64,000 nucleotides of DNA from Raillietiella orientalis. Lineage: Eukaryota. Below, one piece after another: positions 21,098-48,817 of the stretch (position 1 is its first letter; every line of letters begins with the position of its first letter). The notes beneath the pieces were generated by a model. That model was given only the letters and a program-made list of their open reading frames with translations. It searched no databases and was not told the origin of the DNA. Location: NCBI GenBank assembly GCA_036172245.1, contig JAYWIR010000032.1, positions 2,170,001-2,234,000 of the forward strand, given 5' to 3'. The translations under genes were made by a program, and so were the position numbers.

Positions 21098-21281
21098 CTC
21101 CTCCAATCCACGTTTCTGGAGCAATGTCCCTGAGGCAGCCGCGGATGACGGGAAACCCCTGGCGAACGCGGAGATGCAGACATACGTAGCCCGAAGCTGT
21201 CAACCAGCACTCTGCTGTAAGGTAAGCCGCCTTTCTTCAAGGGGGTGATGAGGCCGCCGGGAAGCAAGCCAAAAAAGAGTG
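21098..21281 (+). repeat. Direct repeat B, copy 2
   Basis: See 17563-17746; ORFs 17302..17667 and 20490..21203 share their N-termini. Confidence 0.9.
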
Positions 21282-24089
21282 GACGTCTGCAGAGAGGACC
21301 TACAGTCCCTCATCATCCAGGAAGGGAGCGACGGATAGGAGGCGATCTGCAGAAGTGCAGAATTCGCCCAACATCTTCTCCCCACCCTACTGAACATCGC
21401 AGGACAGTGCGTCTCCCCCGCAAAGGAGGATCGGTCCTTCGTCCTCCACCTCAAGGCCTTCGAGTGTTTCTGCGACCGCGACGTCCTTACCGCGTAAGCG
21501 GATCGCGCCATTGTGCACGCCCTATGTCGGAAAGCGGATCCCACGAGGGGCATCCACTGAGGACGTCTACGATGTGCTCTCCGTGGCGCGCGTTTCCCCC
21601 CAAAACAGACGAAAATCTCGCACAAACCGGACATCGGCGGAAGACTCCTGGGTCTCTGGTTGGTGATCAGAGCGGAGGTGCGCGGCGAGAAGCGGCGGCC
21701 GAAAAGAAGAAGTCCGGAGGTCGAGTGCGGCGAATGCATGCAACTGGGGCACATCGGGTGCGCACGCCCTGCACTGGCAGCGGGAGCTTCTCGCCCAGCA
21801 TCCTGCGATCCGCCACGTGGGGAGGATAGGCCCGCGAATCCAAGCATCGCCGAACGGGAACTCGATAGGACTATCCTCGATGGCAGCGACGCCCCTTGGA
21901 CAGTCGGCATGCATGCAACAACAGGTTCCCTTCTGCACGCCCTCTCCAGATGCGCACGCGTTTTCGCGCGGCTGCCCTCCAGAGAAGCGCGCCGTCGTGT
22001 CGGGGAGAAACGTTTCGCTTGGCTGCTGGGACAGCACCACGCCGGTGGCTGCCTTACTGTTTCAGTGGCAGAGACCAGATCGCTCGGATCGATGACGACC
22101 GTGGATGTGTGGCTGGCGCGAAAACCTTCTCCAAGTTCCTTAGCAAAGTGGTTTTCTCGGTACTCCACCTTTGGAGGAAGAGAGTTGAGGGGAATTCGAG
22201 GGTTGTTCAAGTTCTATCCTGTCCCTACGCATCCGACCATCCCTCTCCGGTGTCTCTGTGATTACCTACGGAAGCTGTAGATGACGTTGCCATTGATTAC
22301 CCTGTTGCCGCTACGGCAGCTAGGGACGCTGCTTTCGTGTCCGCGGTCGCATGTAGCGTAGCCACCATCGTATCGATCGTGCCACTAGGCAACCGTGATG
22401 CCTTCGATGCTCCCCGTTGACGTCTCACTGCTTTCTGGCAGCAGACATCGTCAACCTGCATGCTCTTCCGCGACGCTTACTCGCTTGGGGCACGAACGCG
22501 CGAGAAATTCCAGTCTAGGACACTCGAACCAGGGGAGCCACTGCGAAGACGAGATGTTCCTCCCAGGAAGAATTCTCCACCATCAGGATTTGCCGTGCTT
22601 CTAAATATCCAAGAATGCACATGAATTCGGTGTCAGCACCCGCTACGCAGCACCCCTCCCGCCCCCCAAGAGTCAATTAACGCCTAGACTGCGAGACAAC
22701 ATAGGCTTTAAGGACAAGGGAGACATCAGCGTTCCAGGATAGCACGTGGCCACGTGGCCGCAGAAACCGTGCCCTCCCTTTTCTGAACCTGTGGAAATCT
22801 CGAACCAATTCCGGAAGAGAAAACGTCGATGCAATGCCGGATATTGCGCCGGTCCAGCACCTCTCAAAGCACTCCTGATCGTGAGAATGCGTGCACCCCT
22901 GTCTCCGACGGTCCAGGTTTGTCGGTCCCAACCACACCGACAACCTACACACCAGAACTTTTCCTGAAGAAGAAAACGAAGAAACATTGCTGCGGAGGAA
23001 GGAACGCCGAAGAGCAAGGTCGGCGTTGTCCGACATAACCAGGAAGAGAAGGTGGCGCTTTCCTTAGCATAGTGAGTTGAGCACACCACCGCAGCCTCAG
23101 TAGCAGACAACGAACGTGTCCACTTAACTGCTTGCACAGCAGAAGACAGTCACTCGGAGACCAGAAGAGCAAGACGAATGCTCCTCCTAATTCAGGGACG
23201 ATGCTCCGGAACAGACGCCACGCCCGAGACCAAGAAAAGTGGTGCTTCCCACCCGCAATACGAGCCACGGTATGCCCCATCTCTCGCTGGAGGCTAGAGG
23301 TGTCAGCCTCCTGGATGAACGCCGCCATCCCCGTGCACACTGGAAAACGTTCGCTCTTCATCCCAAGGCACTCCCGCGGAAAGGTGGCGGGCAAAGCGAG
23401 CTGCGGGAGCGGACCCGCAATAGCGCGCGCCTGAAAGGAGAGAAGTGCCGGGCGAGCAGCGAGGCGCAGCTCTACCGTCGTGCCAGCAAACAACGGGCGT
23501 GCGCACATGGAGAGGAGGGAAGCCAAAGACATCATCACCAGCACAGTGGCACTCCTCAGAAGGGAACGACCGCACTCTGCACTGCAAAACGACGCCTTCC
23601 AGCATCCCTGACGATGAAGTGTTGCTCTCCATCTTCCGTTCCTCATTACTTGTCAGCACCGTTTCGTGCGACCAGCGTCACTCCTGGGTGGCACCTCTAT
23701 GGAACTCGTTCTCGCGTGAAGCCATCCCGCTGCAAGACCGCACTCATCGCCTTCCCAAGCGCGCGCTTCCTTTTTCCCTTCCGAAGTAGGAAGGCTGCAA
23801 ACCGCCCACGCTTTCGAACGACACTCGCCGCTAGAAGCAGAATTTCAAACAACGGATGTTTGCCACCTTGCCAGGTCCACACGCCGTTTGTCCTGTGGCT
23901 GCTACGTGGGTAAACGACAAACGAGGAACTCCTAGGTTGGTGATGCACCATTGGCATGAGAACACCGCTGATCCGGAGGCAGCGCCCGATGACGCGATCT
24001 CTCCTGAGATCTCCTGACTCGCATCCACGGAACTCAGACTTTGACGTCATAAACCTCTGCCGATATTCCCGGAACAGAGAAATGAACAG

Positions 24090-24159
24090 TGCAGAACACA
24101 GCAAAAGACATGCGCAGAGAGCGTTTCGAGAGTACGCGTGTGCACCTGGACTTGCAGAG
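24090..24159 (+). repeat. 70-bp internal direct repeat C (second copy at 26768-26837; mirror copies ~45853-45922 and ~43175-43244)
   Basis: tgcagaacacagcaaaagacatgcgcagagagcgtttcgagagtacgcgtgtgcacctggacttgcagag matches 26768-26837 with a few mismatches. Confidence 0.85.
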
Positions 24160-27100
24160 CCACCCCAAGCTTTCCGACGCTTTGCCCCTCCACGGATGGA
24201 GAAGACGTCGTTCTTTGGCAACTCTGCCTCGTGCAGAGCGACCTCTTTCCCCGGTCCCCCTTGCGAAGCGCAGTCTCTTCCATTCGCCAGCCGAGCAAGC
24301 GCCTTCGCGCTCCCAGAGGCGCGTGGAACGCGTCCGCACCACGCGTCCAGCCTACGGAAGGAAGGCGCAGGCGCACGGAATGCGCCTGCGTACGCCGGCA
24401 CAGCCAAAGCCACGGACGGCCGCCGTTGCGTTTCGCCGCGTGATGGTCACCAGTGCAGTGCAAGCAACACGAGCTCTCCCTTCCCGGAGGATGCTCCGGA
24501 ACAGCGACGCGACCAGCGGCTCTCGTGGAGGCAGATCATTCGTTTTCCTCTTCGCGAAACCGGAAACGCCGAAGTCGCTCTTCGCAGCGGCTGCTCCCGG
24601 TCGGCCGCCGCTCGAAGGACAAACCACGGCAGCCACGAACGTACCAGGAGATTGTCGTTCCCAGCACAGGAAAGAGAATAAACGTTTGCAGAGGAACCAA
24701 CCCCAGGAACGTTCCGGCAGCATACCCCGAAAGGAAGGTCGTCTCCTTTTGGCTTCTGCACGGGAACCGCGGAAGCAACCCGGAAACCCCTGGATGCGCG
24801 CAGACATCCGGCGTAATCACTTCCAATCCCCGCTAACGAGCGGTTGCATCCGGTCGTCGACCACGCACACCTGTCATTCGGGTGGCACACCCCCAAGCCC
24901 AGCAGATCAACGACGACCTGCGGTGTGACCCGAAACCCGCGACGCACTTTTCACCCTGGGCGTTGACGCTTCAAGAGGATTCGAACCCGCAACGCTTGGT
25001 GACGTGCTCGGCCAGCAGCAGCAGTCGCACGGCCTGCACAGCGGACACGAGAGTATCCTTACCGCCTTCCGGCTCCGCTCATCCCAACCGCCCCCATCCG
25101 CGATCGCAGCATCGCCGGCCAGGGAGCTCGTTCGTGGCGCGCGCCTCGAGCATCTGCAACCAGCATCCCAGGGGCGATCCGCACGTCAAGGCGCTGCTGA
25201 CGGCCTGCAAGACGCGAGCAGCACAGCAGGACGCTGCGGCGCGGTGGACCACCCGCGTCTCCGCGTTCCATATAGAACTCTGCGTGGGCGGAGAGCGCGT
25301 GCTCGAATCCATCGATCCACAATCCACGCAGTGAATTTAACGGACGCATTTGATGGGCGGCTCGTGGCCTGCGAGCCGTTGTCATGGAGCATCTGCCTCT
25401 TCACGGTAGCCGTTGCTCCTCGCGTCAGTCAGACGGCGAGAAGCGCACGCGTCCCGGGCTCGCCGGCGCCGGCGCTCCGCATCGCCAGGCGGCAAGCGCA
25501 CGGCAGAACGCTGCCCCTTGCGCCTCGGGATCCGCGCCTCTCCATACTCGCTGCACCCTCCCAAAGGCGGCTAGAGACCCGACGGCGAGGAGACCGGTTG
25601 CGCGGTCAAGCGACCACAGCCCGATTCGCTCTCTGTTTCCACGTAACCTTGCGCCAGAAACGTCGTGACCACGAAAGTGCGGCTCACGAAGAGAACGAGC
25701 GGAGTGTGAGCTGCTGTAGAAGGAAGCAAGGGCGTCGCTGTAGCGCCCTGGAGATGACCTCACTTCCGGGTGGTCTCCGGTACACGGCTCTTGCGAGCCG
25801 CCTTGCCGCGCTGAAGACGGGGTCTCCGCAATTCCGAGGACATTCCGGATCTGCGCATTGCCACGCGACGCGACGCGGCATACGATGAGAGAGGAGGAAG
25901 TGTGGTCCCTCCCGCAACTGGTCCATCGCTACGTCCATCAGAGTGCACGTCGCCTTTCAGCAGCGACGCCGTGGAGGATTTCCTCATACGAGATGAGATG
26001 GGTTCACCAACGGAAGATTGGCGCGGGCGAGCCGACTGACTCGCGTCCGAAGCGTGACAGTGCGCGTGTGCACTCGGCGCGGCCGTGTCTTCCTTCCGGT
26101 CCAGCTCCCAGCTTGCCGCTAAAGAGAGAGCCGTCGGACCGCAACCGCCAGCAGCTCCTGTAAAGCCAGGCGAGCGTGCGGATGGCGTTTAAGCCTTCTC
26201 GGTCGAAGGGGTGGCACCCGCGGCGATGAGGAAGGCAGGCCGATCGTCCTCCCATCCGAGGGCAGCCTGCCGATCCGCCATTGCCCTTCCACAGACCTGC
26301 CTACCCGTTCCCCTCCTCCTGAGTCACCTCAGAAGCTGCGGAACGAAGGGGTCGCGCCGGCGTCGACCTGGGGCGAGCTTTATTTCCGCGTTCCGAAGTC
26401 CAGCGGCCTTTCCTGGCGTCCTCCTGCGTCTCGACCCGAGGTCCAGCAACGGGATCGTGTCGCCACCTGACGTCACGTCATCGGAATGCTCCGTCGTCGC
26501 CTGGAAGCAGCCTTCCGCTGGCGCCAGCGGTCTCGAAGCCAGGGATCCACCATGGTCCTCCACCCGACTTGCCCAACGGGCACCGGTACCTCGCAGGAGC
26601 CGCGTGACCCGTGGCAACCGCAGCGGCCGTCCTGCTACCACGTCGGCGTTCCTACGAGGGTGCCAAGAATCCCGCGCCACGAGGCTGGAGGTCGCAGCAG
26701 GCGGTCTCTGAGTGGACCATGACTTCGAGAAATGCACGCTGATCTCATCCAAGCCGAGTCTGGACAATGCAGAACACAGCAAAAGGCGTGCGCAGAGAGC
26801 GTTTCGAGAGGTCGCGTGTGCACCTGGACTTGCAGAGTCAGTCTTCCCCTGGGATGGCGTCGCCGGCTCGGTTAGGGGGGTAGCGCCTGGAGAGCGCAGA
26901 TCCCACCGGAGTGGACGTGGCTCCCGTCCTCCTGATCGCCCGAACGACCCCCACAGCAAATCCGGAAGGCGCGCTGCCGACTGCCCTGTAGGCTCCGTGG
27001 CCCACGCGTGGACCCGCGTAAACATCTGGCGTGGAGGCCTTTCGGGGACTCCGCGACCGGGGGGAGATCGCCGTGTGCCGCAGCATCCGGGACGCGAGCC

Positions 27101-27430
27101 CCCTCGCTGGCGCTGATCCTAGCCTCGCCTGGCCGCCTGCATCGCTCTCTCTCTCCCCCCTACCCCCGGGAAGGAAATTTCGCTCCCGCGGTGTCGTCGG
27201 GCGCGGGTCTCGGAAGTACTGGACGAAGCCGTCCCGCGCGCTGAAGGCGCCGCATCCTGAAAGCACCCGCTCACGGCAGCGAGCCTTCTTGCCCTCGTCG
27301 ACCCGTCCGCGACGCACCCGCGGGCTGCTGCGACTGACAAGACGGCGGGGGACGTGCCCTGTGCGTTGGGATGCTGTATTCCGGACAATGGGACCTGCGG
27401 TGAGAGAGGCGGGCGGCGCCTCGTCCGCGC

Positions 27431-29707
27431 CTACGACCGCGTCCTGGCGAACGTCACCGTCCACGTGACCAGGTCCACCAGCGTCTTCACCTTTTCCAGC
27501 AGCATCGTGGAGATGCTGAAGACGCCCTCGCCGCCGTCGTCCACGAACTTCAGCAAGCAGAGGGTGGAGTTGACCTGGACATGCGAGGGTCACCACGGGC
27601 GCGCACGACCTCGGCGTCGCCCTTGCGCGCAAGTTGCCGCAGGCTCCCGGCGAGAGGGCAGGCAGACCCGCCCGCGCCCGCCGCAGGCAGACGCGGCTGC
27701 CGACGGCACCGACAGCGATCGCTGAACCGGAGGAGCTCCGTGTGGCGCCCGGGGAGCCGCGCGCACGTCCACTCGGGACGCGGCAGCACCGCCGGCGCCT
27801 TGATTTCCCCGTCCTGCTCCTTCCGCGCGCGCCGTATCCTCGTCCTCCTCGTTCCGACGCCAGCACTCACCTTCCAGACGTAGTCCTTCTTCCTCAGGAT
27901 GACCCGCACCTTCCTCCCGAAGTCGTAGACCACCTTGGGCATCCTCCTGCCCCTGCAGGCCACCTGCGCGGGACGCGTGCGCGTGCGCAACGGGAGGGTC
28001 GCGCGCTCGCGCCTCACCTCGTACGCCATCGGGTCGAAGGTCGCCTTCTTGGCCCGCGTGTCCTCCACGATGCGGTCCACGAACTCCTTGGGCGCGCCTG
28101 CGAAGAACGTGCTGGTCGTCAGGATGCCCAGAGGGTTGGCCAGCGTCCACCGCTCGTCGATGAGCACCCTGAGGCGGCGCGAGCCCTCAGCACTTGCCCT
28201 CCCCCCCCCCCCTCAGCCGCCGCTGAACCGACGGACTTTCCTCCCAGGCAGGGCCGCTGGCGCCCACCCGCTCACCTGCAGAAGAAGAACCGGAAGTCCC
28301 TCAGTCCGGACGTCAGCTTCAGCTGCGATCCCCTCTCAAAGCCCTTCGTCTTCCCGAAGACGATCCTCCCTCCTTTGTTCCTGGACCGGGACGTCCAGGC
28401 AGTTCCAGAAAACCCGCGACCGTGCTCACCGTTTGAAATGCAGGGTCACCATCTTCTCCGTCAGCAGAGACGTCACGTACTCGATGACCACCGTGGGTCC
28501 GAACGGGAACGCCCCCGAGAACTCCAACCCGTTGACCACGCTCTCGGGGCCGGGGTCGTACAGCATTTGGCTGATCTTCTGGGTGGAGCCGAGGACAGGC
28601 TGCTCGCTGGTGTTGACCTGCATGGGGGCACGGGAGCGCCACGTCCAGAGTCCGGGAACCCCGCGGGCGCCTCCCCCTCCTCCTCGTAGTCGTCGTCCCC
28701 CGCTGCCTTCGTCCCCTAGAGCCCCGCGGGTGAGCGCCCGCGTTCTTCCACCAGCTGGCCGCCGCTCGCGTCCGAGCGGCGCCGCCGTCGCCATGTGCGG
28801 CCGATCCGCGGGCGAGCCGCAGCGATCCCTATGACACGCGCGTCGCCAGCGTACCGGCGAGCGCACCGAGCGACGGCGCTCGTTCGCTGGCTTCGCCAGC
28901 GAGGCGACAACGACCGTGCTCGGAGATGGAGCGTGCGCGAAAGGCGCGGACGCGCCGGTGCGCCTCCAGCCCGCCGAACTAGGGGCCCAGGGGGGCGCCG
29001 CCTGGCGGAAAGCGCGTGCGATTTTCGGAGCGAACCGCGCGCCACCCTACCCGGCCGCAGCGCCGACAGCGCGCTCTCTCTCGACACGGACAGCCGGCCG
29101 CGAGCCGGAGGGGTCAGGCAGGATGGGCGGGGCCCGTCACCGCGGTGCTTCCTTGCCTGCAGCATGTCGGTCCCCTTGTTGCCGTACACCAGCGTCCCGT
29201 AGAAGTAGGTGGCTGCCCTGCCGTGCAGGCTCTGGTAGGTCTCGGACTCGTCGACCTTGAACTCGGGGTGGCGTGCTGCCGGGTGAGGTGCGGCAGCGCG
29301 CCGTGTGCACGAGGTCGCTTCGGGGCAGCTTACCGCACCAGGAGGTCGTGCAGTTGAAGGGCACCCACACGGTCGACTCGTTGGCGTGGACGGTCATGTT
29401 GAACGCCTGCTCAGGGGTGCCAAGTCCCACGGACAGGAAGTACAGGTGCTAAGGCGACGGCTCGCGACGGGCGGCTGGCGGCACGACACCGCTCGCGTAC
29501 CTGGTCGTAGGTCAGCAGCAGGGTCGGCGCCTCCACCCAGTTGCAGCTGCGATTCCGGTCGGGATCGCGGCATCCCGGTCGTCCGTCCTCCACCTGGCAG
29601 CGCACGACCGTTTCCCGAGCTGCGTTGTGCGTCGCCACCAGCACCAGCGCGGCGGGCAGACGTATCAGAGGAAGAACGAGAGCTGCCAACAACCGCACCT
29701 TCGCCAT
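27431..29707 (-). CDS. Secreted pepsin-like (family A1) pseudo-protease, copy 1 (mirror of 40307-42581)
   Basis: Exons 29707-29501, 29448-29334, 29275-29157, 28617-28430, 28380-28276, 28168-28018, 27963-27871, 27574-27431. The coding sequence appears identical to copy 2. The only difference noticed in the gene is a 2-nt poly-C length change in intron 5 (about 28201). Confidence 0.9.
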
Positions 29708-32482
29708 GGTCCACGAATGACGGCGACGGCAATCGGCACCTGCAGCTGCTGGATGCGCGCGCGACGCACGCGCTGCCGCTCCGCGTGCTCAGCGCCAGCG
29801 CGTCGAGCGATGCGCATCTTCTGCAGAGGGAAAAGCCATGCTGCGCACCGCGGCCGTCCTCCCGTTCGTTGTCATCCCTTCCTCTTCCCCGGACCGTGCG
29901 AAAGCGGAGCCCATCCACCCGAGGGAGATGCGTCGCGCGCCTCCGGCCTTCCCTCACCTCCGCTTCCCGGGGACGCCCAGGAGGTTTCGTACTTTGCTTA
30001 TCCTGCGGTGGTCGGGTCCCCCTTCAGGCCACGAGTCCCGGCAGCCCCAGCCGAATCGTGGCGTTCGCGCGTGCGACCTACCGAACGCCCGCACGTTGTG
30101 GGCACCGGGAGGGAGACGGGGCGCGCGCCGGTGGGACGCGTCGTGGGTACGCGGCCGGTGTGGATGCCGTGGCAACCGCAGGATGCGGGTGACAAAGAGA
30201 AAGGGAGAGCTGTTCCGTGGACGGAAGGCGAGGGTTGAAGGATGCGCGCGACCGCAGCGGGCAGGTGGTGACGGCCGTGCTCCCGCCTCGAGGGCGCTCG
30301 AGGGCCGGCCACGAGACGATCACTGCGTCCGGAATCTCCGTGACGATCGTTCCTCAAATAGATGTGAACAATTTTTCCTTCGTCCTGCAGGGTGCAGGGT
30401 CACTTGATATTTAGGGTGAACCTTCATTTAGGTGGTTCAGCTAGTGATTTGTTCATGCTCGCGTGCAGGATTTTCGGCGTGAATCCTGCCCAGATGCCGT
30501 AGACGGGCGAATGTTGGTTGTTATTGAATTGCACGAAGTCTGGCTGCTATGGGGGGTACGCGGTTGCGTAGGTGATGTTCTTTTTCTTGTGATAGGGGTT
30601 TGAGAATATGTCGCTGGTTGTCGCATTTTTCGTAAAGGAAAGGGGGCTTCAGTGGGATGCTGAAGAAACTAGACGTGGCTGTTTACTTGCACGTCATGTA
30701 GCTGGTTCGAGAAGAAATGGAGAAGACTGCGAGAGTGTCTTCTCGATTTCTTGGTGTAGGTTGCTTCTGTCTCTAACTGCTTCAGATCTGTTTCTCTGCA
30801 ACCGCGAATGTCCTCTTCCGACGCGCAGCTGAAAAAGGAGATCGGACTCCTGTTTCAGGACCTTGGAAGGAGCCCATTGGCACTCTCGGATCTTCTGATG
30901 AGCCCGTGGGTTGGTACCGATAGTGAATGGTAATTCGCAATCTGTCTGGGATTGCTGATTCTGCGTTTTGTTTGTTGCTAGGTGCTTTGGTCAGTAGCCT
31001 GAAAGCAATACTGCGCTTCTTGCATGTCGATGGACCGCGGAGACATCTTGCGTTTTGGAATGTGTAGGAAGCGTCGATTACTCGAAGGGAAGCGCTGGAG
31101 GCGTCCAGGGTTGTTGCGCGGAACCATCAGCCGCCTTTTCAGGGTTGACATGCTGGGTGATGTCGCGCTATGGGGGACATGAATTTCCAGTGAGAGCCAT
31201 GCTGACGAGAGTAGCGAAACCGCGCCATCTTGTGTCCCCTCGTTCGGGAATGCGACAGCGCAACTGCGTGCGCACCGTCACTTTCGGTCGCTGCTCGCAA
31301 CCCCTTTTAACCTTTCGGTTCCAACAGCGCGTTCTCTTTCGCAGCCTGGGTGTTCCTGGTGACTTGACTTTGTTTGCTGCTAAGTGAGGGCATCGGCTGC
31401 CGGGCGAGGCTTCGACGCCGGAAGCCCTTTCCGACGACCTTGAGGCTTGGGCTGTGCTTCTCCGTCATGTGCGGATGGGTGCGCGCCTTAGTCGGCACTG
31501 TGTGGCGGCTGGTGTGTCGGTTGTTCCGTTGTCCTCGGAGCCAATTTTCCCCGTCAGTCGCGCTTTCTGATAGAGCTGTGGTGAGCAGCATTGTGGCCGG
31601 TGAGCCTCCCGAAGAGTTTGGCACAGACCGGTGAGTGTCACCCCGAGCAGGCAGCTGCTGCAGTGACCCTTTTGCTCCGCTTGTTGCCCAAGTGACTGCG
31701 GCTCCCCGCGCCGACCTGCTGTGTTTCTTCCCGTAGCTCCTGCTTGGCGCGAACGGCCTCTTCCTTAGGGATGTGGCGGGATTCCTCGTCATGCTTTGAT
31801 GCGGCAGCTGCGTGAGGATCGATAGCGATGCCTGCGTGCCTCTGTCACGAAGCGGCGACCTTTCCTAGAACGCGCGACGCGCCAGCGTGCCCCTTCTGTA
31901 GGACAGCGAGTAGCCGGCTCTAGAGCTTGCTACCCTAAGGGGAGTTTCCTAGGTGGAAGCTACTGCTGTGGTCACTGCCGTTGGAGCAAAGAAGGGTGCG
32001 CCGGAAGGTGCGGCTCTCTTGAGGACATGTGCGATGGGAGCAGATGCGCTGCACTTGTTGGTTTCAAAGTGGAAGACGCGTCCTGAGGGCGGTGTTCTCT
32101 CCGTCCCCGTGAACCAGTTTTGTGCGACAAGTTGCCGTGCCAAGACTGCTAGAGTCTCCCACGACTCATGGTCTCGCGCTGTAGTGAAACTCGCTTGAAT
32201 CTTGTCACGGCCGCTTAAAACCTTGCGCATCCCGGCTTGTCTCCTCCGATGCCTTTCGTGGTCTGTGTGATTCTTCCTTCCGCGGTAGCTGAGCTGCGGA
32301 GCTGGGTGGTCAAACGCAACTCGTGATCCGCGCGGCCTGCGGTGCTCAAGCCTTCTCTGTGGACGCAGCCCTGTCGCCTAACGGGGGGGCCTTCTCTGAA
32401 CGGTGTCTGCAGCATCAGTGAGAAATCCCCCGTTTCTTTTCCTAGGATTTGTGGAAGACGCTCCCAGCTTCCACATTTTGCG

Positions 32483-36699: not shown

Positions 36700-38630
36700 G
36701 AAAGAGTAATAGGCTAAAGAACCTGGTGCTAGGGAAGTCTCCTAACTCCCGAAACCGGAATCAGGGATGCCTATGAGGAACGCGCCTTTCGACGACGAAG
36801 GGCGAATTGGGCAGGTCTCCTTGGGGTAGTGGCTGGAAAACATAGGCCTAGTGAGGACGAACACATGGACTTCTCCAGCCGACGAGACGGCAGTCACGTT
36901 TTGTGGGACCTTTGAAAGGAATGGCTGAGTTGTCACCCGGGTGCGCCTAGGGCGTTTATTTGAGATTGTCAACGTTGTGCTGGGGGCAGTACTCTGAATC
37001 CTCTGTAGGATGCAGAGGCGAAGGTCTGGCTGATTGGAGTTGCCTCTTCGAGAAAATGGAGGTCCCGCCCAACAGGGGGGAGCTGCTTCCGCTCTCGTCC
37101 TCGCGAACTGCTCGCTAACGGCACGGTTAGGGAAGACTGCAAGTTATTTGATGTGCCCGGCGCGATCCCATGCGCCTCCCGGTCGAAGCACGGGATCGAA
37201 CCTTTTCCCGGCGCACACGTGGTTCCAGGTCCGAAGAGGAACCCCCAGGAGGGAATCAATCCGAGAGACGGAAGCGCCCAATGCATGGAGATTCCCCGCA
37301 TCAGAACCTCCGGCACGGAGACTCCAGCCCTCACATCTCCTCGGTCCCCTCACACCTCCAGTTGTTTGCTCTTCTGCCGGCTGAAGGCTTATATCAGCGT
37401 TTCGTCTCGGCCGGTGCGCCTGCGGCGTGCCGGTCAGAAGGGGGTCAAGCAAGGAGACGGCACAAGCCGGTTCCCCTTCGGCTGCTGCTCAGAAGGTCCA
37501 CAAGGCACTAACAGACCCACTGCCCTCCAGCCGCCACACAGTGGGACTCGGCATTTGCAGGCAACCCGCTCCCCCTCCAACTCCGGCAGGCGCGCTGGAG
37601 GGGTTCCCTGGGGGACTTTAGCAATGAACAGGATCACGTGCGAACAGGGAAACGTGAGCAAGGCGGTGCTTTCGGGAGCAGACGGCAGTCAAAACACGGA
37701 CTGGTCTTCGCTGGGAATATCTCTGGGGGACCACCTCGGATACCTAGGTGCCCTCATCGTCCCAGTAGCAAAGAATAATTGACCCCCTCCGAGGTTGGCA
37801 GGTTCCTCCCGCCCGAGCGAGTGGCTGTTTAGTACACGTCTGCGGTCTCACCCGGGAGACTACGTGAAAAAGGAAATGTCGAGGTGCTCCAGATAGGCAA
37901 AAGCTGCTTACCCGAGCGAGTGGCCGTTTGGTACACATCTGTGGTCTCCAGGGTGAGCAGTGCACGCCCCTTTCGGATGCCATTTGACTGCTGCGGTCTC
38001 CGAGCGTGCCTTCAACAAATGTAGCGGGTTCGAATACTCCGACAGAAATCGAGGCAGTGCGTCGTGGGTTCGAGTTCCTCCCGCAAGATGACACTGGTTG
38101 ACCTACATTCATTCGGGTGCGGAACTGGTAGCGGCTCAAACAGGATGCACCCGATGAGGACTGGGATTAATGGGAGTCGACCTCCGGGTCCTTCCAGGAA
38201 TCAAGGAGTAGCAGTTCCCCTCCGGTTATGAAGGAGCGGATCCTCATTCCGGAAGGACCCTCCGCGTCATACTGATAGGGTAGGTATCACCAGCACCTCT
38301 CCAGAGAGTGCAGAGAAGCGAGCCAATCCCTTCGGGGAAGCTGCATCCTTCTGAATTTCGGAAGTCTCCCTTCTGGGTTCTCTTTAGAGGAGTAAACAGG
38401 AACGGATACCTTGCGGGTTCCCTAAAGAGAAGAAATTCCTGATAGTGGATCCTTTCTGGTTCCCTTCGAAGATGAAAAATGGAGCGGACCCCCGGACAGG
38501 GTTCCTCCGGACAGAATAAGAAAGAAGATTTTCTTATGGGTTCCCCTATGGAGACGACCAGGGTGGAGCTTCCCTTGCGGGAACCTCCCCAGAAGTGAGA
38601 GGAACGGACTCCGAAGCTTCCTGGATTCGT
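36700..38630 (-). mobile_element. Degenerate DIRS-like retrotransposon relic (includes repeat family A copy at 38170-38630)
   Basis: Minus-strand LPPVGRDLHFLEE...SYRGFRVLPP (~36980-37085) resembles the DIRS1 RT N-terminal PVGGRL..F...W......GY...F...PP motif. It lies downstream of the family-A segment. No intact RT or tyrosine recombinase was seen. Confidence 0.35.
37812..37950 (+). repeat. Imperfect ~38-bp tandem duplication spaced ~99 bp apart
   Basis: cccgagcgagtggctgtttagtacacgtctgcggtctc (37812) versus cccgagcgagtggccgtttggtacacatctgtggtctc (37911). Confidence 0.75.
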
Positions 38631-39623
38631 GATGCAACAGTGCACCTGTAGCAGCGGAATACCTGCCTGTTATCAGGGCGACATCAGGAGGGGAAAAAAT
38701 CTCCCCTTAAAGGAAATGGCTGCAGCCCAAACCTCGGCCGCCGACCAGGCAGTCACAAAGCGGATGACGTCACTGAAGTTTTGGCGCAGAACCGAAAGAA
38801 GGAAGAACCGAAACGCGCGATGAAGACTGCCTAGCCTCGAGGGACTCTCCTCCACTGGAGCAACAGAAGTAGAATATGCAGAAGGCACGACTGAAACGGC
38901 CAGAGGCGAACCCTTGAGCTTTCGGAGCTGATTCCCTGCAGCCTGCGAGGCGGACTGCAGCCTGGCGACCTGCGGGCAAAGTCCCCCGTGGACAGATGCA
39001 GGCCCAGCCAAATCCCACGGGCCGCGCAGGGAAAAAAAGATGCGTCGAAGGGAATGAAACGGCCCGTGGACGTCCTGGGAATTTGGGAGGATGTACTACA
39101 AGTCGCACACGCCGATCTGTTTGGAAGAACATCTCCTTTCCCTCACCATCCACTGGGACCTCCTCAAGAATGATCTGCTTCACTGCTCCAGGGAAGAGTA
39201 AACCCAAGATGCAAAAAATGCGAAAGGGATCCGACCTTCCCACATCTCTTAACAGTGAGCCCCCAATATGGATGAAGGGAAATGCCGCAAAGCACTTTCC
39301 ACCCATACCCGACCACCGACGTTCTGCTAAGGCGGCCTTTCCAAAAGAAAAGTTGCTCCAGAATAGCGGTCTCCATCATAGAGTTTATCCTTCGGGTCGC
39401 CATGGTAAACAAGCACATTCCAGCACATGAAAAACGGAACGCCAGTGTGCTCCAGATAATCAAAAGACTGCTCATTACAGCGCGCAATCGTCACATCCGA
39501 GAGAACTAGACATGAGCACAAGCGTCCGAAAACCCACACCCTCACCCTCATCCGCCATCCACCCAACTCCCCACCAAACCACCCCTCACTACAGGTGATG
39601 AGATAATAGAATGATCCCTAACT

Positions 39624-42600
39624 CTGCAGGACGAAGGAAAAATTGTTCACATCTATTTGAGGAACGATCGTCACGGAGATTCCGGACGCAGTGATCGTCT
39701 CGTGGCCGGCCCTCGAGCGCCCTCGAGGCGGGAGCACGGCCGTCACCACCTGCCCGCTGCGGTCGCGCGCATCCTTCAACCCTCGCCTTCCGTCCACGGA
39801 ACAGCTCTCCCTTTCTCTTTGTCACCCGCATCCTGCGGTTGCCACGGCATCCACACCGGCCGCGTACCCACGACGCGTCCCACCGGCGCGCGCCCCGTCT
39901 CCCTCCCGGTGCCCACAACGTGCGGGCGTTCGGTAGGTCGCACGCGCGAACGCCACGATTCGGCTGGGGCTGCCGGGACTCGTGGCCTGAAGGGGGACCC
40001 GACCACCGCAGGATAAGCAAAGTACGAAACCTCCTGGGCGTCCCCGGGAAGCGGAGGTGAGGGAAGGCCGGAGGCGCGCGACGCATCTCCCTCGGGTGGA
40101 TGGGCTCCGCTTTCGCACGGTCCGGGGAAGAGGAAGGGATGACAACGAACGGGAGGACGGCCGCGGTGCGCAGCATGGCTTTTCCCTCTGCAGAAGATGC
40201 GCATCGCTCGACGCGCTGGCGCTGAGCACGCGGAGCGGCAGCGCGTGCGTCGCGCGCGCATCCAGCAGCTGCAGGTGCCGATTGCCGTCGCCGTCATTCG
40301 TGGACCATGGCGAAGGTGCGGTTGTTGGCAGCTCTCGTTCTTCCTCTGATACGTCTGCCCGCCGCGCTGGTGCTGGTGGCGACGCACAACGCAGCTCGGG
40401 AAACGGTCGTGCGCTGCCAGGTGGAGGACGGACGACCGGGATGCCGCGATCCCGACCGGAATCGCAGCTGCAACTGGGTGGAGGCGCCGACCCTGCTGCT
40501 GACCTACGACCAGGTACGCGAGCGGTGTCGTGCCGCCAGCCGCCCGTCGCGAGCCGTCGCCTTAGCACCTGTACTTCCTGTCCGTGGGACTTGGCACCCC
40601 TGAGCAGGCGTTCAACATGACCGTCCACGCCAACGAGTCGACCGTGTGGGTGCCCTTCAACTGCACGACCTCCTGGTGCGGTAAGCTGCCCCGAAGCGAC
40701 CTCGTGCACACGGCGCGCTGCCGCACCTCACCCGGCAGCACGCCACCCCGAGTTCAAGGTCGACGAGTCCGAGACCTACCAGAGCCTGCACGGCAGGGCA
40801 GCCACCTACTTCTACGGGACGCTGGTGTACGGCAACAAGGGGACCGACATGCTGCAGGCAAGGAAGCACCGCGGTGACGGGCCCCGCCCATCCTGCCTGA
40901 CCCCTCCGGCTCGCGGCCGGCTGTCCGTGTCGAGAGAGAGCGCGCTGTCGGCGCTGCGGCCGGGTAGGGTGGCGCGCGGTTCGCTCCGAAAATCGCACGC
41001 GCTTTCCGCCAGGCGGCGCCCCCCTGGGCCCCTAGTTCGGCGGGCTGGAGGCGCACCGGCGCGTCCGCGCCTTTCGCGCACGCTCCATCTCCGAGCACGG
41101 TCGTTGTCGCCTCGCTGGCGAAGCCAGCGAACGAGCGCCGTCGCTCGGTGCGCTCGCCGGTACGCTGGCGACGCGCGTGTCATAGGGATCGCTGCGGCTC
41201 GCCCGCGGATCGGCCGCACATGGCGACGGCGGCGCCGCTCGGACGCGAGCGGCGGCCAGCTGGTGGAAGAACGCGGGCGCTCACCCGCGGGGCTCTAGGG
41301 GACGAAGGCAGCGGGGGACGACGACTACGAGGAGGAGGGGGAGGCGCCCGCGGGGTTCCCGGACTCTGGACGTGGCGCTCCCGTGCCCCCATGCAGGTCA
41401 ACACCAGCGAGCAGCCTGTCCTCGGCTCCACCCAGAAGATCAGCCAAATGCTGTACGACCCCGGCCCCGAGAGCGTGGTCAACGGGTTGGAGTTCTCGGG
41501 GGCGTTCCCGTTCGGACCCACGGTGGTCATCGAGTACGTGACGTCTCTGCTGACGGAGAAGATGGTGACCCTGCATTTCAAACGGTGAGCACGGTCGCGG
41601 GTTTTCTGGAACTGCCTGGACGTCCCGGTCCAGGAACAAAGGAGGGAGGATCGTCTTCGGGAAGACGAAGGGCTTTGAGAGGGGATCGCAGCTGAAGCTG
41701 ACGTCCGGACTGAGGGACTTCCGGTTCTTCTTCTGCAGGTGAGCGGGTGGGCGCCAGCGGCCCTGCCTGGGAGGAAAGTCCGTCGGTTCAGCGGCGGCTG
41801 AGGGGGGGGGGAGGGCAAGTGCTGAGGGCTCGCGCCGCCTCAGGGTGCTCATCGACGAGCGGTGGACGCTGGCCAACCCTCTGGGCATCCTGACGACCAG
41901 CACGTTCTTCGCAGGCGCGCCCAAGGAGTTCGTGGACCGCATCGTGGAGGACACGCGGGCCAAGAAGGCGACCTTCGACCCGATGGCGTACGAGGTGAGG
42001 CGCGAGCGCGCGACCCTCCCGTTGCGCACGCGCACGCGTCCCGCGCAGGTGGCCTGCAGGGGCAGGAGGATGCCCAAGGTGGTCTACGACTTCGGGAGGA
42101 AGGTGCGGGTCATCCTGAGGAAGAAGGACTACGTCTGGAAGGTGAGTGCTGGCGTCGGAACGAGGAGGACGAGGATACGGCGCGCGCGGAAGGAGCAGGA
42201 CGGGGAAATCAAGGCGCCGGCGGTGCTGCCGCGTCCCGAGTGGACGTGCGCGCGGCTCCCCGGGCGCCACACGGAGCTCCTCCGGTTCAGCGATCGCTGT
42301 CGGTGCCGTCGGCAGCCGCGTCTGCCTGCGGCGGGCGCGGGCGGGTCTGCCTGCCCTCTCGCCGGGAGCCTGCGGCAACTTGCGCGCAAGGGCGACGCCG
42401 AGGTCGTGCGCGCCCGTGGTGACCCTCGCATGTCCAGGTCAACTCCACCCTCTGCTTGCTGAAGTTCGTGGACGACGGCGGCGAGGGCGTCTTCAGCATC
42501 TCCACGATGCTGCTGGAAAAGGTGAAGACGCTGGTGGACCTGGTCACGTGGACGGTGACGTTCGCCAGGACGCGGTCGTAGGCGCGGACGAGGCGCCGCC

Positions 42601-45600
42601 CGCCTCTCTCACCGCAGGTCCCATTGTCCGGAATACAGCATCCCAACGCACAGGGCACGTCCCCCGCCGTCTTGTCAGTCGCAGCAGCCCGCGGGTGCGT
42701 CGCGGACGGGTCGACGAGGGCAAGAAGGCTCGCTGCCGTGAGCGGGTGCTTTCAGGATGCGGCGCCTTCAGCGCGCGGGACGGCTTCGTCCAGTACTTCC
42801 GAGACCCGCGCCCGACGACACCGCGGGAGCGAAATTTCCTTCCCGGGGGTAGGGGGGAGAGAGAGAGCGATGCAGGCGGCCAGGCGAGGCTAGGATCAGC
42901 GCCAGCGAGGGGGCTCGCGTCCCGGATGCTGCGGCACACGGCGATCTCCCCCCGGTCGCGGAGTCCCCGAAAGGCCTCCACGCCAGATGTTTACGCGGGT
43001 CCACGCGTGGGCCACGGAGCCTACAGGGCAGTCGGCAGCGCGCCTTCCGGATTTGCTGTGGGGGTCGTTCGGGCGATCAGGAGGACGGGAGCCACGTCCA
43101 CTCCGGTGGGATCTGCGCTCTCCAGGCGCTACCCCCCTAACCGAGCCGGCGACGCCATCCCAGGGGAAGACTGACTCTGCAAGTCCAGGTGCACACGCGA
43201 CCTCTCGAAACGCTCTCTGCGCACGCCTTTTGCTGTGTTCTGCATTGTCCAGACTCGGCTTGGATGAGATCAGCGTGCATTTCTCGAAGTCATGGTCCAC
43301 TCAGAGACCGCCTGCTGCGACCTCCAGCCTCGTGGCGCGGGATTCTTGGCACCCTCGTAGGAACGCCGACGTGGTAGCAGGACGGCCGCTGCGGTTGCCA
43401 CGGGTCACGCGGCTCCTGCGAGGTACCGGTGCCCGTTGGGCAAGTCGGGTGGAGGACCATGGTGGATCCCTGGCTTCGAGACCGCTGGCGCCAGCGGAAG
43501 GCTGCTTCCAGGCGATGACGGAGCATTCCGATGACGTGACGTCAGGTGGCGACACGATCCCGTTGCTGGACCTCGGGTCGAGACGCAGGAGGACGCCAGG
43601 AAAGGCCGCTGGACTTCGGAACGCGGAAATAAAGCTCGCCCCAGGTCGACGCCGGCGCGACCCCTTCGTTCCGCAGCTTCTGAGGTGACTCAGGAGGAGG
43701 GGAACGGGTAGGCAGGTCTGTGGAAGGGCAATGGCGGATCGGCAGGCTGCCCTCGGATGGGAGGACGATCGGCCTGCCTTCCTCATCGCCGCGGGTGCCA
43801 CCCCTTCGACCGAGAAGGCTTAAACGCCATCCGCACGCTCGCCTGGCTTTACAGGAGCTGCTGGCGGTTGCGGTCCGACGGCTCTCTCTTTAGCGGCAAG
43901 CTGGGAGCTGGACCGGAAGGAAGACACGGCCGCGCCGAGTGCACACGCGCACTGTCACGCTTCGGACGCGAGTCAGTCGGCTCGCCCGCGCCAATCTTCC
44001 GTTGGTGAACCCATCTCATCTCGTATGAGGAAATCCTCCACGGCGTCGCTGCTGAAAGGCGACGTGCACTCTGATGGACGTAGCGATGGACCAGTTGCGG
44101 GAGGGACCACACTTCCTCCTCTCTCATCGTATGCCGCGTCGCGTCGCGTGGCAATGCGCAGATCCGGAATGTCCTCGGAATTGCGGAGACCCCGTCTTCA
44201 GCGCGGCAAGGCGGCTCGCAAGAGCCGTGTACCGGAGACCACCCGGAAGTGAGGTCATCTCCAGGGCGCTACAGCGACGCCCTTGCTTCCTTCTACAGCA
44301 GCTCACACTCCGCTCGTTCTCTTCGTGAGCCGCACTTTCGTGGTCACGACGTTTCTGGCGCAAGGTTACGTGGAAACAGAGAGCGAATCGGGCTGTGGTC
44401 GCTTGACCGCGCAACCGGTCTCCTCGCCGTCGGGTCTCTAGCCGCCTTTGGGAGGGTGCAGCGAGTATGGAGAGGCGCGGATCCCGAGGCGCAAGGGGCA
44501 GCGTTCTGCCGTGCGCTTGCCGCCTGGCGATGCGGAGCGCCGGCGCCGGCGAGCCCGGGACGCGTGCGCTTCTCGCCGTCTGACTGACGCGAGGAGCAAC
44601 GGCTACCGTGAAGAGGCAGATGCTCCATGACAACGGCTCGCAGGCCACGAGCCGCCCATCAAATGCGTCCGTTAAAGTCACTGCGTGGATTGTGGATCGA
44701 TGGATTCGAGCACGCGCTCTCCGCCCACGCAGAGTTCTATATGGAACGCGGAGACGCGGGTGGTCCACCGCGCCGCAGCGTCCTGCTGTGCTGCTCGCGT
44801 CTTGCAGGCCGTCAGCAGCGCCTTGACGTGCGGATCGCCCCTGGGATGCTGGTTGCAGATGCTCGAGGCGCGCGCCACGAACGAGCTCCCTGGCCGGCGA
44901 TGCTGCGATCGCGGATGGGGGCGGTTGGGATGAGCGGAGCCGGAAGGCGGTAAGGATACTCTCGTGTCCGCTGTGCAGGCCGTGCGACTGCTGCTGCTGG
45001 CCGAGCACGTCACCAAGCGTTGCGGGTTCGAATCCTCTTGAAGCGTCAACGCCCAGGGTGAAAAGTGCGTCGCGGGTTTCGGGTCACACCGCAGGTCGTC
45101 GTTGATCTGCTGGGCTTGGGGGTGTGCCACCCGAATGACAGGTGTGCGTGGTCGACGACCGGATGCAACCGCTCGTTAGCGGGGATTGGAAGTGATTACG
45201 CCGGATGTCTGCGCGCATCCAGGGGTTTCCGGGTTGCTTCCGCGGTTCCCGTGCAGAAGCCAAAAGGAGACGACCTTCCTTTCGGGGTATGCTGCCGGAA
45301 CGTTCCTGGGGTTGGTTCCTCTGCAAACGTTTATTCTCTTTCCTGTGCTGGGAACGACAATCTCCTGGTACGTTCGTGGCTGCCGTGGTTTGTCCTTCGA
45401 GCGGCGGCCGACCGGGAGCAGCCGCTGCGAAGAGCGACTTCGGCGTTTCCGGTTTCGCGAAGAGGAAAACGAATGATCTGCCTCCACGAGAGCCGCTGGT
45501 CGCGTCGCTGTTCCGGAGCATCCTCCGGGAAGGGAGAGCTCGTGTTGCTTGCACTGCACTGGTGACCATCACGCGGCGAAACGCAACGGCGGCCGTCCGT

Positions 45601-47388
45601 GGCTTTGGCTGTGCCGGCGTACGCAGGCGCATTCCGTGCGCCTGCGCCTTCCTTCCGTAGGCTGGACGCGTGGTGCGGACGCGTTCCACGCGCCTCTGGG
45701 AGCGCGAAGGCGCTTGCTCGGCTGGCGAATGGAAGAGGCTGCGCTTCGCAAGGGGGACCGGGGAAAGAGGTCGCTCTGCACGAGGCAGAGTTGCCAAAGA
45801 ACGACGTCTTCTCCATCCGTGGAGGGGCAAAGCGTCGGAAAGCTTGGGGTGGCTCTGCAAGTCCAGGTGCACACGCGTACTCTCGAAACGCTCTCTGCGC
45901 ATGTCTTTTGCTGTGTTCTGCACTGTTCATTTCTCTGTTCCGGGAATATCGGCAGAGGTTTATGACGTCAAAGTCTGAGTTCCGTGGATGCGAGTCAGGA
46001 GATCTCAGGAGAGATCGCGTCATCGGGCGCTGCCTCCGGATCAGCGGTGTTCTCATGCCAATGGTGCATCACCAACCTAGGAGTTCCTCGTTTGTCGTTT
46101 ACCCACGTAGCAGCCACAGGACAAACGGCGTGTGGACCTGGCAAGGTGGCAAACATCCGTTGTTTGAAATTCTGCTTCTAGCGGCGAGTGTCGTTCGAAA
46201 GCGTGGGCGGTTTGCAGCCTTCCTACTTCGGAAGGGAAAAAGGAAGCGCGCGCTTGGGAAGGCGGTGAGTGCGGTCTTGCAGCGGGATGGCTTCACGCGA
46301 GAACGAGTTCCATAGAGGTGCCACCCAGGAGTGACGCTGGTCGCACGAAACGGTGCTGACAAGTAATGAGGAACGGAAGATGGAGAACAACACTTCATCG
46401 TCAGGGATGCTGGAAGGCGTCGTTTTGCAGTGCAGAGTGCGGTCGTTCCCTTCTGAGGAGTGCCACTGTGCTGGTGATGATGTCTTTGGCTTCCCTCCTC
46501 TCCATGTGCGCACGCCCGTTGTTTGCTGGCACGACGGTAGAGCTGCGCCTCGCTGCTCGCCCGGCACTTCTCTCCTTTCAGGCGCGCGCTATTGCGGGTC
46601 CGCTCCCGCAGCTCGCTTTGCCCGCCACCTTTCCGCGGGAGTGGCCTTGGGATGAAGAGCGAACGTTTTCCAGTGTGCACGGGGATGGCGGCGTTCATCC
46701 AGGAGGCTGACACCTCTAGCCTCCAGCGAGAGATGGGGCATACCGTGGCTCGTATTGCGGGTGGGAAGCACCACTTTTCTTGGTCTCGGGCGTGGCGTCT
46801 GTTCCGGAGCATCGTCCCTGAATTAGGAGCATTCGTCTTGCTCTTCTGGTCTCCGAGTGACTGTCTGCTGCTGTGCAAGCAGTTGAGTGGACACGTTCGT
46901 TGTCTGCTACTGAGGCTGCGGTGGTGTGCCCAACTCACTATGCTAAGGAAAGCGCCACCTTCTCTTCCTGGTTATGTCGGACAACGCCGACCTTGCTCTT
47001 CGGCGTTCCTTCCTCCGCAGCAATGTTTCTTCGTTTTCTTCTTCAGGAAAAGTTCTGGTGTGTAGGTTGTCGGTGTGGTTGGGACCGACAAACCTGGACC
47101 GTCGGAGACAGGGTTGCACGCATTCTCACGATCAGGAGTGCTTTGAGAGGTGCTGGACCGGCGCAATATCCGGCATTGCATCGACGTTTTCTCTTCCGGA
47201 ATTGGTTCGAGATTTCCACAGGTTCAGAAAAGGGAGGGCACGGTTTCTGCGGTCACGTGGCCACGTGCTATCCTGGAACGCTGATGTCTCCCTTGTCCTT
47301 AAGGCCTATGTTGTCTCGCAGTCTTGGCGTTAATTGACTCTTGGGGGGCGGGAGGGGTGCTGCGTAGCGGGTGCTGACACCGAATTCA
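39624..47388 (-). repeat. Right arm of the large inverted repeat
   Basis: Begins ctgcaggacgaaggaaaaattgttcacatc at 39624 (reverse complement of 30361-30390) and ends near ccgaattca at 47388. About a dozen substitutions and 3 small indels versus the left arm, seen by eye. Confidence 0.97.
40307..42581 (+). CDS. Secreted pepsin-like (peptidase family A1) protein, both catalytic Asp lost (pseudo-protease), ~373 aa, copy 2
   Basis: Manual 8-exon model: 40307-40513, 40566-40680, 40739-40857, 41397-41584, 41634-41738, 41844-41994, 42049-42141, 42438-42581. All phases fit; introns are GT-AG except intron 3 (GC-AG). Kozak-like ccATGg and hydrophobic N-terminus (MAKVRLLAALVLPLIRLPAALVLVA). Pepsin landmarks occur in order: LYFLSVGLGTPEQAF, VWVP..C....C..H, ESETY, FYG, EFSGAFPFG, GGRIVFG, AGAPKEFV, YEVAC..MPKVVYDFG, DYV, CLLKF, VDL...TVTFA. 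Confidence 0.9.
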
Positions 47389-48817
47389 CGTGCCTTCCGA
47401 TGGATTTAGAGTGTTTCCCTGTTCGTGTCCGTGAAACTGCGATTTTTGTGGCGGGAACTAAGCGCACCGTGTCCTTGTGTCCAGCGCTTTTCGGCCTTTT
47501 GGCTAATGTCAAAGTGCCCAAGTGGAATCTTTTACTACGGCACACCATTCTCTTGCTTTCGTTTCTCTTCGGGAACTCTCGGCTTGAGGTAACGGGTTTT
47601 CGTGAAGAAAAAAGAGTACTTGTCTCCTCTGTTTGGTTGGGCATCCCGTTTCCGAACTGGGAGAAATTCTTCTATGTGCAGGCAGATGTGGTCAGTGAGC
47701 TCTCATTTAGTTCTTCGCCTTCTATTACTTCGAACTGTGCCTCTTGCTTTACAATCTCGTGGGTGTCCGGCGCTCTTGTCAGCGAGGTCTTAAGCAGGTG
47801 GTTTTCCGTACGTACCAGGTGTGTCGCCAATAGCGTGCTGGCGTTGGCCATTTGTTCTTCGTAGAAGCACGGTTTCAACTCGTTTTTTGTCTTCCGGTTT
47901 CCTTTCCTGTGTTGTCAATGCCCTCCGAATATTAACATGTGATCTGTGGGGTCGCCAGTGCATCGGTCTTTTGTTATTACTGCTGATCTCTTCTTCTGCG
48001 TTGTCTTGTTCCTCTGCAAGTGTAGTTTCTTCATCTGAAGACTGGATGCTTGCGCATTTCATCATCAGACGGAGTGTTCACCTTTTTGCATTCTCGAGAG
48101 AATCCAGATCACGGTTCCCACTCAACAAGTCTATCTGCGAAACCGTAGCTGTTGAATAAGGGCCTATGCCATGTGCTCGGCTTGATTATCTTTTTACGGC
48201 CGTAGTCTCCCACGTCAAGTGTTTTATGACGACGTAAGATTCCAGTCGCTGTTCTGGAGAGCCTGAGGGTCCGTCAGAATCGACATTTCTTCTTAATGTC
48301 GCATTTCTGGCGGAGAGTTTTCCCCGTCATGGCTTGTTCTTCCTCTCTTCTTCTCGGAAGGGAATGTCGGAGACATACGTCGATTTTGCTCTGACTGCTT
48401 CTTGAGGATGGATCAGTTTTTTCAAGAACAGACAGTTCTTCTGGGCGCGCTGAGCCTTTCATTCGGCGGAATTCGGGGTTGGACTCCGTGGTAGACCTTC
48501 ACACAGGTTTCCCGACTTTCGTGAGCGGCAACGTCTCTCTCCCAGATTTCCCTTGGAGATGCGCCTTTTTTGGTTGATGAAGAGACCGGAGGCAGCTCTT
48601 GTCGCTATTGGCCGCTTTCTTCCCATTCCGGTTTTCCTTCCAGTCTCGATGATCCGAGTTTGCATCCCCATTTCGAATGTTTCCAGAGAGCGATTCGCAC
48701 CCCAAGGTCGAAGAGGCCCGTCATTTGCTTTGATTTCAAGGGAGCTGTTACGGCGTAGCGAAATGGGGTGCCAGCATGGGCGGTAGCACTGGTGCAAAGC
48801 TTTCCTCTCTGGTGCAA

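Follow-up and report, generated by a model that had tools for sequence, protein, structure and literature searches.

A diverged pepsin-superfamily gene of Raillietiella orientalis in which both catalytic aspartates are replaced probably encodes a secreted, non-catalytic protein

We analysed a 64,000-nucleotide stretch of DNA from Raillietiella orientalis (assembly GCA_036172245.1, contig JAYWIR010000032.1, positions 2,170,001 to 2,234,000 of the forward strand; this whole stretch is called the window here, and coordinates count from its first letter), which contains a split gene for a pepsin-like protein carrying His90 and Thr262 at the 2 positions of the catalytic aspartates. Read from its predicted sequence, the gene product is a homologue of the pepsin superfamily (MEROPS A1 / PF00026) across both lobes, and most of the active-site network of these enzymes has been replaced together with the aspartates. 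We consider it probable, if by no means certain, that the gene encodes a non-catalytic and probably secreted arthropod pseudoprotease of the pepsin superfamily, which has been kept by selection and would work as an extracellular binding protein.

The gene (copy A in Table 1) has 7 introns, which measure, in order, 52, 58, 539, 49, 105, 54 and 296 nt, and its joined exons form an uninterrupted reading frame of 1122 nt (373 codons). All 7 introns show consensus donors and acceptors with consistent phases; 6 of them are GT-AG and the third (40858-41396) is GC-AG, with the donor CAG/GCAAGG at 40858. Among 11 in-frame, stop-free donors compared for this intron by means of the A1 profile described below, the GC donor scored highest (47.2 bits versus 42.0 or less). 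The codon check placed His90 at CAC (40626) and Thr262 at ACG (41893), exactly where a preliminary description of this DNA had located both codons, and the intact reading frame and splice sites that it had reported correspond to this stop-free 8-exon splice with canonical sites, including the single GC-AG.

Reference loci of the A1 family were gathered with a degenerate DNA pattern of the N-lobe motif (4 from prokaryote assemblies and at least 120 from metagenomes). Among 124 listed loci, 54 open reading frames (ORFs) of at least 300 amino acids carried this motif. A profile was built from the 52 of them in which D[TS]G[TS] also occurred a second time, the sequence from the motif onward spanned 280 residues or more, and X residues numbered fewer than 5; 7 of these 52 were tested against PF00026 and all 7 matched it (297-418 bits). 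Against this profile the spliced protein scored 47.2 bits (E 8.4e-17, Z=1), while the best of 2000 shuffles reached 4.0 bits, in a single colinear alignment of residues 62-337 with profile positions 71-357. The C-lobe alone (residues 210-373) obtained 13.0 bits on profile positions 279-393, compared with 4.3 for the best of 500 shuffles, and the protein without exon 2 still scored 16.7 bits (best shuffle 3.0). Because both of these partial sequences outscore their shuffles, each lobe is independently A1-like, and the pepsin homology that had been claimed for the gene holds for both lobes. A scan of the window with the profile, covering every stop-to-stop ORF of 15 amino acids or more, recovered only the 2 copies of this gene; everything else had an E of 0.08 or weaker and looked like noise.

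Database searches with single exons pointed in the same direction for exon 2 (38 amino acids), which matched the Pfam families Asp (E 0.0034, 17.3 bits, profile positions 2-31) and TAXi_N (E 0.0048, 17.5 bits). A phmmer search of the PDB at E<=10 matched this exon to 56 distinct sequences, with few exceptions A1 proteases, with renin at the top (E 0.0011) and with cathepsin D, pepsin, saccharopepsin and Plasmodium HAP among the rest; in the language-model Atlas, its first match (0.97) belonged to an Asp/TAXi_N cluster. Neither Asp nor TAXi_N was found by Pfam in the remaining single exons, where the sole other match was weak and unrelated (exon 8). For the C-lobe we used a read-through of 99 amino acids that runs from exon 6 across intron 6, which is in frame, into exon 7, and whose top Atlas scores (0.87) fell in clusters without a family.

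The identity of the protein to the 52 references is 16-22% (median 18.9%), compared with a median of 40% and a minimum of 31% among the references themselves, which score 396-558 bits on their own profile against 47 bits for the pseudo-pepsin. By these figures the predicted protein is a far outlier of the A1 family. As a separate observation on A1 sequences, eukaryote-type protease coding sequence of this family was seen on short contigs in bacterial assemblies, where it is probably contaminating eukaryotic DNA or cDNA: a 1251-bp scaffold of Glycocaulis profundi carries a full A1 ORF of 397 amino acids, a 372-bp contig of Nocardioides humilatus carries A1 protease coding sequence, and a Rhabdochlamydiaceae metagenome-assembled genome (MAG) carries an exon-like piece.

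Both catalytic motifs are replaced in these alignments. In the N-lobe, VHANES lies opposite the profile consensus FDTGSS, and H-A-N-E-S also falls on D-T-G-S-S in the PDB alignments of exon 2; in the C-lobe, GILTTSTFFAGAP lies opposite aivDsGTSllagp, with TTSTF on DsGTS in the whole-protein alignment as well as in the C-lobe-only one. His90 thus occupies the column of the first catalytic Asp, which is D in 52/52 references (a count that follows from selection, the references having been picked by their catalytic motif), and Thr262 occupies that of the second, which is also D in 52/52. We take these columns to be D32 of DTG and D215 of D-T/S-G in pepsin numbering. The preliminary description had named the loss of both aspartates, and the alignments agree, adding that the network around them is mostly lost too. 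An exon restoring DTG, which that description had put forward as a possible refutation, did not appear: all frames of 39600-43200 lack an alternative exon of the D[TS]G type.

Taking as conserved those profile columns in which one residue is present in at least 85% of references, the protein keeps 21 of 66. The kept columns comprise GTPxQxF, W-V-P, the cysteines C102, C298 and C332 and several Gly and Pro, whereas the first motif has lost its D, T, G and S, the second motif its D, G and S, and the DGILG segment its DG. Of the 66 columns, the final 10 lie outside the local alignment; the C-lobe-only alignment keeps 2 of these 10, and there the ILGD segment reads SIST. Translated into pepsin numbering, the lost active-site network would presumably be T33, G34, S35, G217 and S219 plus the ILGD segment. 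In pepsin-type catalysis, the 2 Asp carboxylates hold a water molecule. Because both Asp and most of the residues that position them are gone, we judge that pepsin-type general acid-base peptide hydrolysis would not be possible and that the predicted protein is non-proteolytic, in keeping with the non-catalytic character first proposed for it.

The structural framework is better preserved than the active site. C102, C298 and C332 occupy columns where 45-51 of the 52 references also have Cys, and C107 follows C102 by 5 residues; we take the C102/C107 spacing to be that of pepsin C45-C50 and the C298/C332 pair to be C249-C282. The third pepsin cystine, in the loop just before the second catalytic motif and presumably equivalent to C206-C210, is absent. 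An initial statement that all Cys positions were intact is therefore right for the 2 conserved cystines and wrong for this loop. In the flap, the Y-G columns of the profile, which we assume to be pepsin Tyr75-Gly76, are aligned with F132 and Y133; a shift by one residue would give Y133-G134, and the flap is seemingly one residue shorter.

Outside the pepsin-like body, residues 1 to ~26 are hydrophobic after a short basic start (hydropathy scan, by eye), so that the N-terminus resembles a signal peptide and the product is probably secreted. Residues 30-68 contain 3 Cys (37, 46 and 55). No Pfam family was found in exon 1 (69 amino acids) at E<=10, hence no A1_Propeptide was recognised; the profile alignment begins only at residue 62, and the extension encoded by exon 1 is unlike an A1 propeptide. 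Four Cys (C37, C46, C55 and C244) are present beyond the 2 conserved pairs, and the N-terminal extension may therefore stay tied to the body by disulfides with C244 instead of being removed. There are 6 N-x-S/T sequons (N52, N86, N92, N101, N149 and N328), one of which, N92, is the Asn of HANES, and these would be candidate glycosylation sites. Together, these elements would describe a precursor of 373 amino acids with a signal-like segment, a 3-Cys extension in place of the zymogen propeptide and a two-lobed body bearing the 6 sequons. By analogy with Bla g 2, Per a 2 and Lma-p54 of cockroaches, the pregnancy-associated glycoproteins and the plant TAXI/EDGP proteins, the retained bilobal scaffold and its cleft would most likely bind an extracellular ligand, be it peptide, protein or small molecule.

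The window also contains a second copy of the gene in this assembly (copy B, Table 1), as the preliminary description had stated. Since the coding sequences (CDS) of copies A and B are identical, the pair gives no dN/dS. Both lie in an inverted repeat of 7.8 kb with 99.7% identity between its arms, and they face each other head to head around a unique spacer of 9.2 kb (30403-39611). A 2-bp poly-G indel in intron 5 is the sole difference between the copies within the gene. The differences between the arms are one-sided: the inner 3.9 kb, which include the whole gene, have no substitution, and the outer 3.9 kb have 14 substitutions and 3 indel events, with all 14 substitutions lying outside the inner alignment edge, distal of 43516 (arms 39624-47397 versus 22613-30390).

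A young duplication would account for this pattern, as would a palindrome that gene conversion keeps homogeneous or an artefact of the assembly; its one-sidedness could come from conversion close to the spacer, from duplication in two steps or from an effect of the assembly. An artefact, either a fold-back or a haplotype join, would mean that the animal has one copy; it bears on copy number only, and no reading of the protein conflicts with it. The near identity of the arms over their full 7.8 kb, the absence of substitutions from the inner half with the gene and the location of the indels in homopolymer-like runs, as sequencing errors would be, all speak for it, but the substitutions and further indels distal of 43516 exceed what a pure fold-back read should show, and the unique spacer carries an intact SmydA-like ORF. 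We think such an artefact unlikely, if far from negligible.

Table 1. Coordinates of the pseudo-pepsin gene, its second copy and the repeat arms in the window (+ and -, strand)
Feature	Coordinates	Strand	Description
Pseudo-pepsin gene, copy A	40307..42581	+	8 exons, 7 introns; stop-free splice, 373-aa product; ATG at 40307, stop codon ends at 42581
Exon 1	40307..40513	+	ATG, hydrophobic signal-like N-terminus, 3-Cys extension (C37, C46, C55; sequon N52)
Exon 2	40566..40680	+	N-lobe psi-loop region GTPEQ...VHANES..WVP; C102/C107 pair; Pfam Asp, PDB A1 and Atlas matches
H90-A-N-E-S94 codons	40626..40640	+	In place of the first catalytic motif, consensus DTGSS
Exon 3	40739..40857	+	Flap region YFYGTLVYG; GC donor at its end
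Exon 4	41397..41584	+	Remainder of N-lobe and inter-lobe region; inside the single profile domain
Exon 5	41634..41738	+	GGRIVFG segment (consensus GGeLvlGG); extra Cys C244
Exon 6	41844..41994	+	C-lobe psi-loop region, GILTTSTFFAGAP
T262-T-S-T-F266 codons	41893..41907	+	In place of the second catalytic motif, consensus DsGTS
Exon 7	42049..42141	+	C-lobe; C298 in conserved Cys column
Exon 8	42438..42581	+	C332 in conserved Cys column; C-terminal strand versus consensus wILGDvF...vgfA; stop codon
Copy B	27431..29707	-	CDS identical to copy A (tblastn, arm alignment, CDS comparison)
Copy B exons	29707-29501, 29448-29334, 29275-29157, 28617-28430, 28380-28276, 28168-28018, 27963-27871, 27574-27431	-	
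Right repeat arm (copy A)	39612..47397	.	blastn of the window against itself
Left repeat arm (copy B)	22613..30402	.	blastn and arm alignment

Base composition bears on whether the gene is live or a relic. The exons have GC contents of 0.55/0.43/0.91 at codon positions 1/2/3, compared with 0.70/0.79/0.75 in the introns, and overall the introns are richer in GC (0.745) than the exons (0.63). The exons are thus poor in GC at second positions within a GC-rich setting, and therefore the positions that determine amino acids resist the regional GC drive. This codon-position pattern argues for a constrained coding gene over an old pseudogene. Additionally, 20000 composition-matched shuffles of the CDS all contained stops, and a long-dead pseudogene as diverged as this one would be expected to hold frameshifts or stops.

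Relatives were sought with exon-sized queries (62, 99 and 42 amino acids), which have little power and would miss relatives below ~45% identity. Exon 4 (62 amino acids), searched against the longer proteins of a word-indexed database, gave 16 word candidates, none of them at E<=0.01; the 99-amino-acid C-lobe read-through gave 0 relatives at E<=0.001 among 1.84 billion representatives; and exon 2 with 4 intron-encoded residues (42 amino acids) gave 1 candidate and none at E<=10. The absence of close relatives in these searches, together with the 16-22% identity to A1 references, fits the undescribed subfamily that had been suggested for the gene.

Several points weigh against a selected, pepsin-folded binding protein. 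With these queries no orthologue was found, and the divergence from the references is very large. The bilobal pepsin fold predicted for the product is drawn from a home-built profile; the Asp match of exon 2 (17.3 bits) is under the gathering score of PF00026 (19.9), a cut-off for whole proteins set here beside scans of pieces. Pfam found no family in the C-lobe read-through, and phmmer found no A1 chain for it in the PDB, its one match at E<=10 being an unrelated acetyltransferase (E 1). The gene and its splicing are predicted from DNA, a GC content of 68% as found here makes long open frames commoner by chance, and the binding (or inhibitor) role is suggested by analogy.

Some of these points would also be expected if the locus were a decaying or never-expressed pseudogene of the pepsin family, whose frame is open by chance and which was copied in a recent segmental duplication. 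The lack of relatives in the exon-sized searches, the extreme divergence in identity and bit score and the many long spurious ORFs on both strands of this GC-rich locus favour such a relic. Against it stand the second-position GC of 0.43 in a background of 0.70-0.79 together with the third-position GC of 0.91, a periodicity missing from the introns, as well as the failure of all 20000 shuffles to stay open, the consensus sites and consistent phases of all 7 introns and the retention of structural columns and both Cys pairs. Divergence of this extent without any frameshift or stop is hard to square with neutral decay, and we rate a relic as improbable.

A further alternative is that the protein is still an enzyme, or holds a metal site, with His90, Glu93, Thr262 and Thr265 as a new catalytic or metal-binding centre. 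His90 is aligned with the first catalytic Asp and Glu93 stands at the Ser35 position; the side chains of Asp32 and Ser35 touch in pepsins, and the H-x-x-E spacing is visible in the sequence. HAP, which works with His at the first position and whose chains match exon 2 (E 0.1-0.15), is a partial precedent, but it keeps the second Asp, where the present protein has Thr. With the psi-loop Gly gone from both lobes and the ILGD segment lost as well, the geometry has probably changed, and N92-E-S forms a glycosylation sequon within the motif itself; we find such a centre very improbable. Highly speculative, finally, is an elaborate version in which the scaffold has been re-tooled in a lineage-specific arthropod family with a disulfide-tethered extension and a gene-converting palindrome pair, His90/Glu93 facing Thr262/Thr265 as a metal or catalytic centre or the cleft being closed by an Asn92 glycan.

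With a non-catalytic binding protein as the preferred reading, we compared the predicted product with known pepsin-fold proteins. It resembles A1 peptidases such as cathepsin D, renin and pepsin in its colinear homology over both lobes, the GTPxQxF...WVP residues, the 2 Cys pairs and possibly the flap Tyr-Gly, and renin and cathepsin D are the top PDB matches of exon 2. It differs from them by the replacement of both Asp and their network, the lack of a recognised propeptide and its identity of only 16-22%. The protein should be filed as a non-peptidase homologue of A1 and not as a peptidase.

Among arthropods, the known pepsin-fold examples come from cockroaches: Bla g 2, Per a 2 and Lma-p54, secreted proteins described as inactive and of unknown or binding function (PMC9541408). 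Like them, the present protein would be a secreted arthropod non-peptidase with a pepsin fold, secretion being read here from the sequence of its N-terminus. In Bla g 2 both Asp are present, in altered triads, alongside additional disulfides and a zinc site, whereas both Asp are gone here. The PDB contains Bla g 2, yet no chain of it was among the 56 sequences matched by exon 2 at E<=10 (a search made with exon 2 only), so membership of the cockroach group is unsupported. Narrow word searches of the literature did not find an arthropod pepsin homologue without both Asp.

Plasmodium HAP shares with the protein the His at the first catalytic position and the exon 2 match. HAP keeps its second Asp and is active; Thr occupies this position here, so the HAP type (His + Asp) does not describe the protein. 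TAXI-I, EDGP and basic 7S globulin are non-catalytic secreted pepsin-fold proteins of plants with mostly intronless genes, and pregnancy-associated glycoproteins are non-peptidase A1 homologues that act as binding proteins. Any likeness to TAXI/EDGP is in working mode at most: membership of the plant TAXI type was rejected, as the weak TAXi_N match of exon 2 reaches 17.5 bits against a 30-bit cut-off and no TAXi_C was found on the C-lobe pieces (pieces only were scanned).

In the surroundings of the gene, the spacer between the 2 copies contains a single-exon ORF (32327-33934, + strand) for a protein of 535 amino acids with zf-MYND and SET domains. Five database matches to it passed the threshold, of which 4 were named, all from insects, and 2 of these bear the name SmydA-8-like. 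An Apolygus hypothetical protein and an Ischnura SmydA-8-like protein are 35% identical to it, and 2 Thrips palmi proteins, one of them SmydA-8-like, are 26% identical. SmydA is an arthropod-specific class. The SmydA-like neighbour points to an arthropod source for this DNA, and the arthropod attribution made at the outset fits both this gene and its named best matches, which are all insect; the proteins of this arthropod would be absent from the database searched. GC content and short introns had first raised the idea of an apicomplexan, algal or fungal source, which the SmydA matches led us to reject.

Elsewhere in the window, a gene for a trypsin-like S1 serine protease lies at ~53275-55618 on the - strand, recognised in 2 ORF pieces (Pfam Trypsin, E 9.8e-22 and 1.2e-13) whose PDB matches are ordinary chymotrypsin-fold proteases. 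Measured per 2 kb, GC content lies between 0.376 and 0.686, with a CpG observed/expected ratio of ~1, and the GC-rich island at the pseudo-pepsin gene is unusual for an arthropod. A direct repeat of 185 bp with 95% identity (17562-17746 / 21098-21281) is possibly a small interspersed element. Neither Rfam families nor tandem repeats were found in the window, and a scan for bacterial promoters and terminators upstream of the gene, which is not applicable to a eukaryote, returned nothing.

Pseudoproteases have turned up repeatedly as secreted binding proteins, allergens and inhibitors. The present gene is of a known kind, a dead enzyme kept for another job, and is a fairly ordinary new example of it; its value is modest, because it opens no new question, the exon-sized searches found no orthologue and the gene is predicted from DNA. 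It adds a much more diverged arthropod case, in which both Asp and their network are gone while coding constraint is visible, and it could help to identify those elements of the pepsin fold that are retained for binding.

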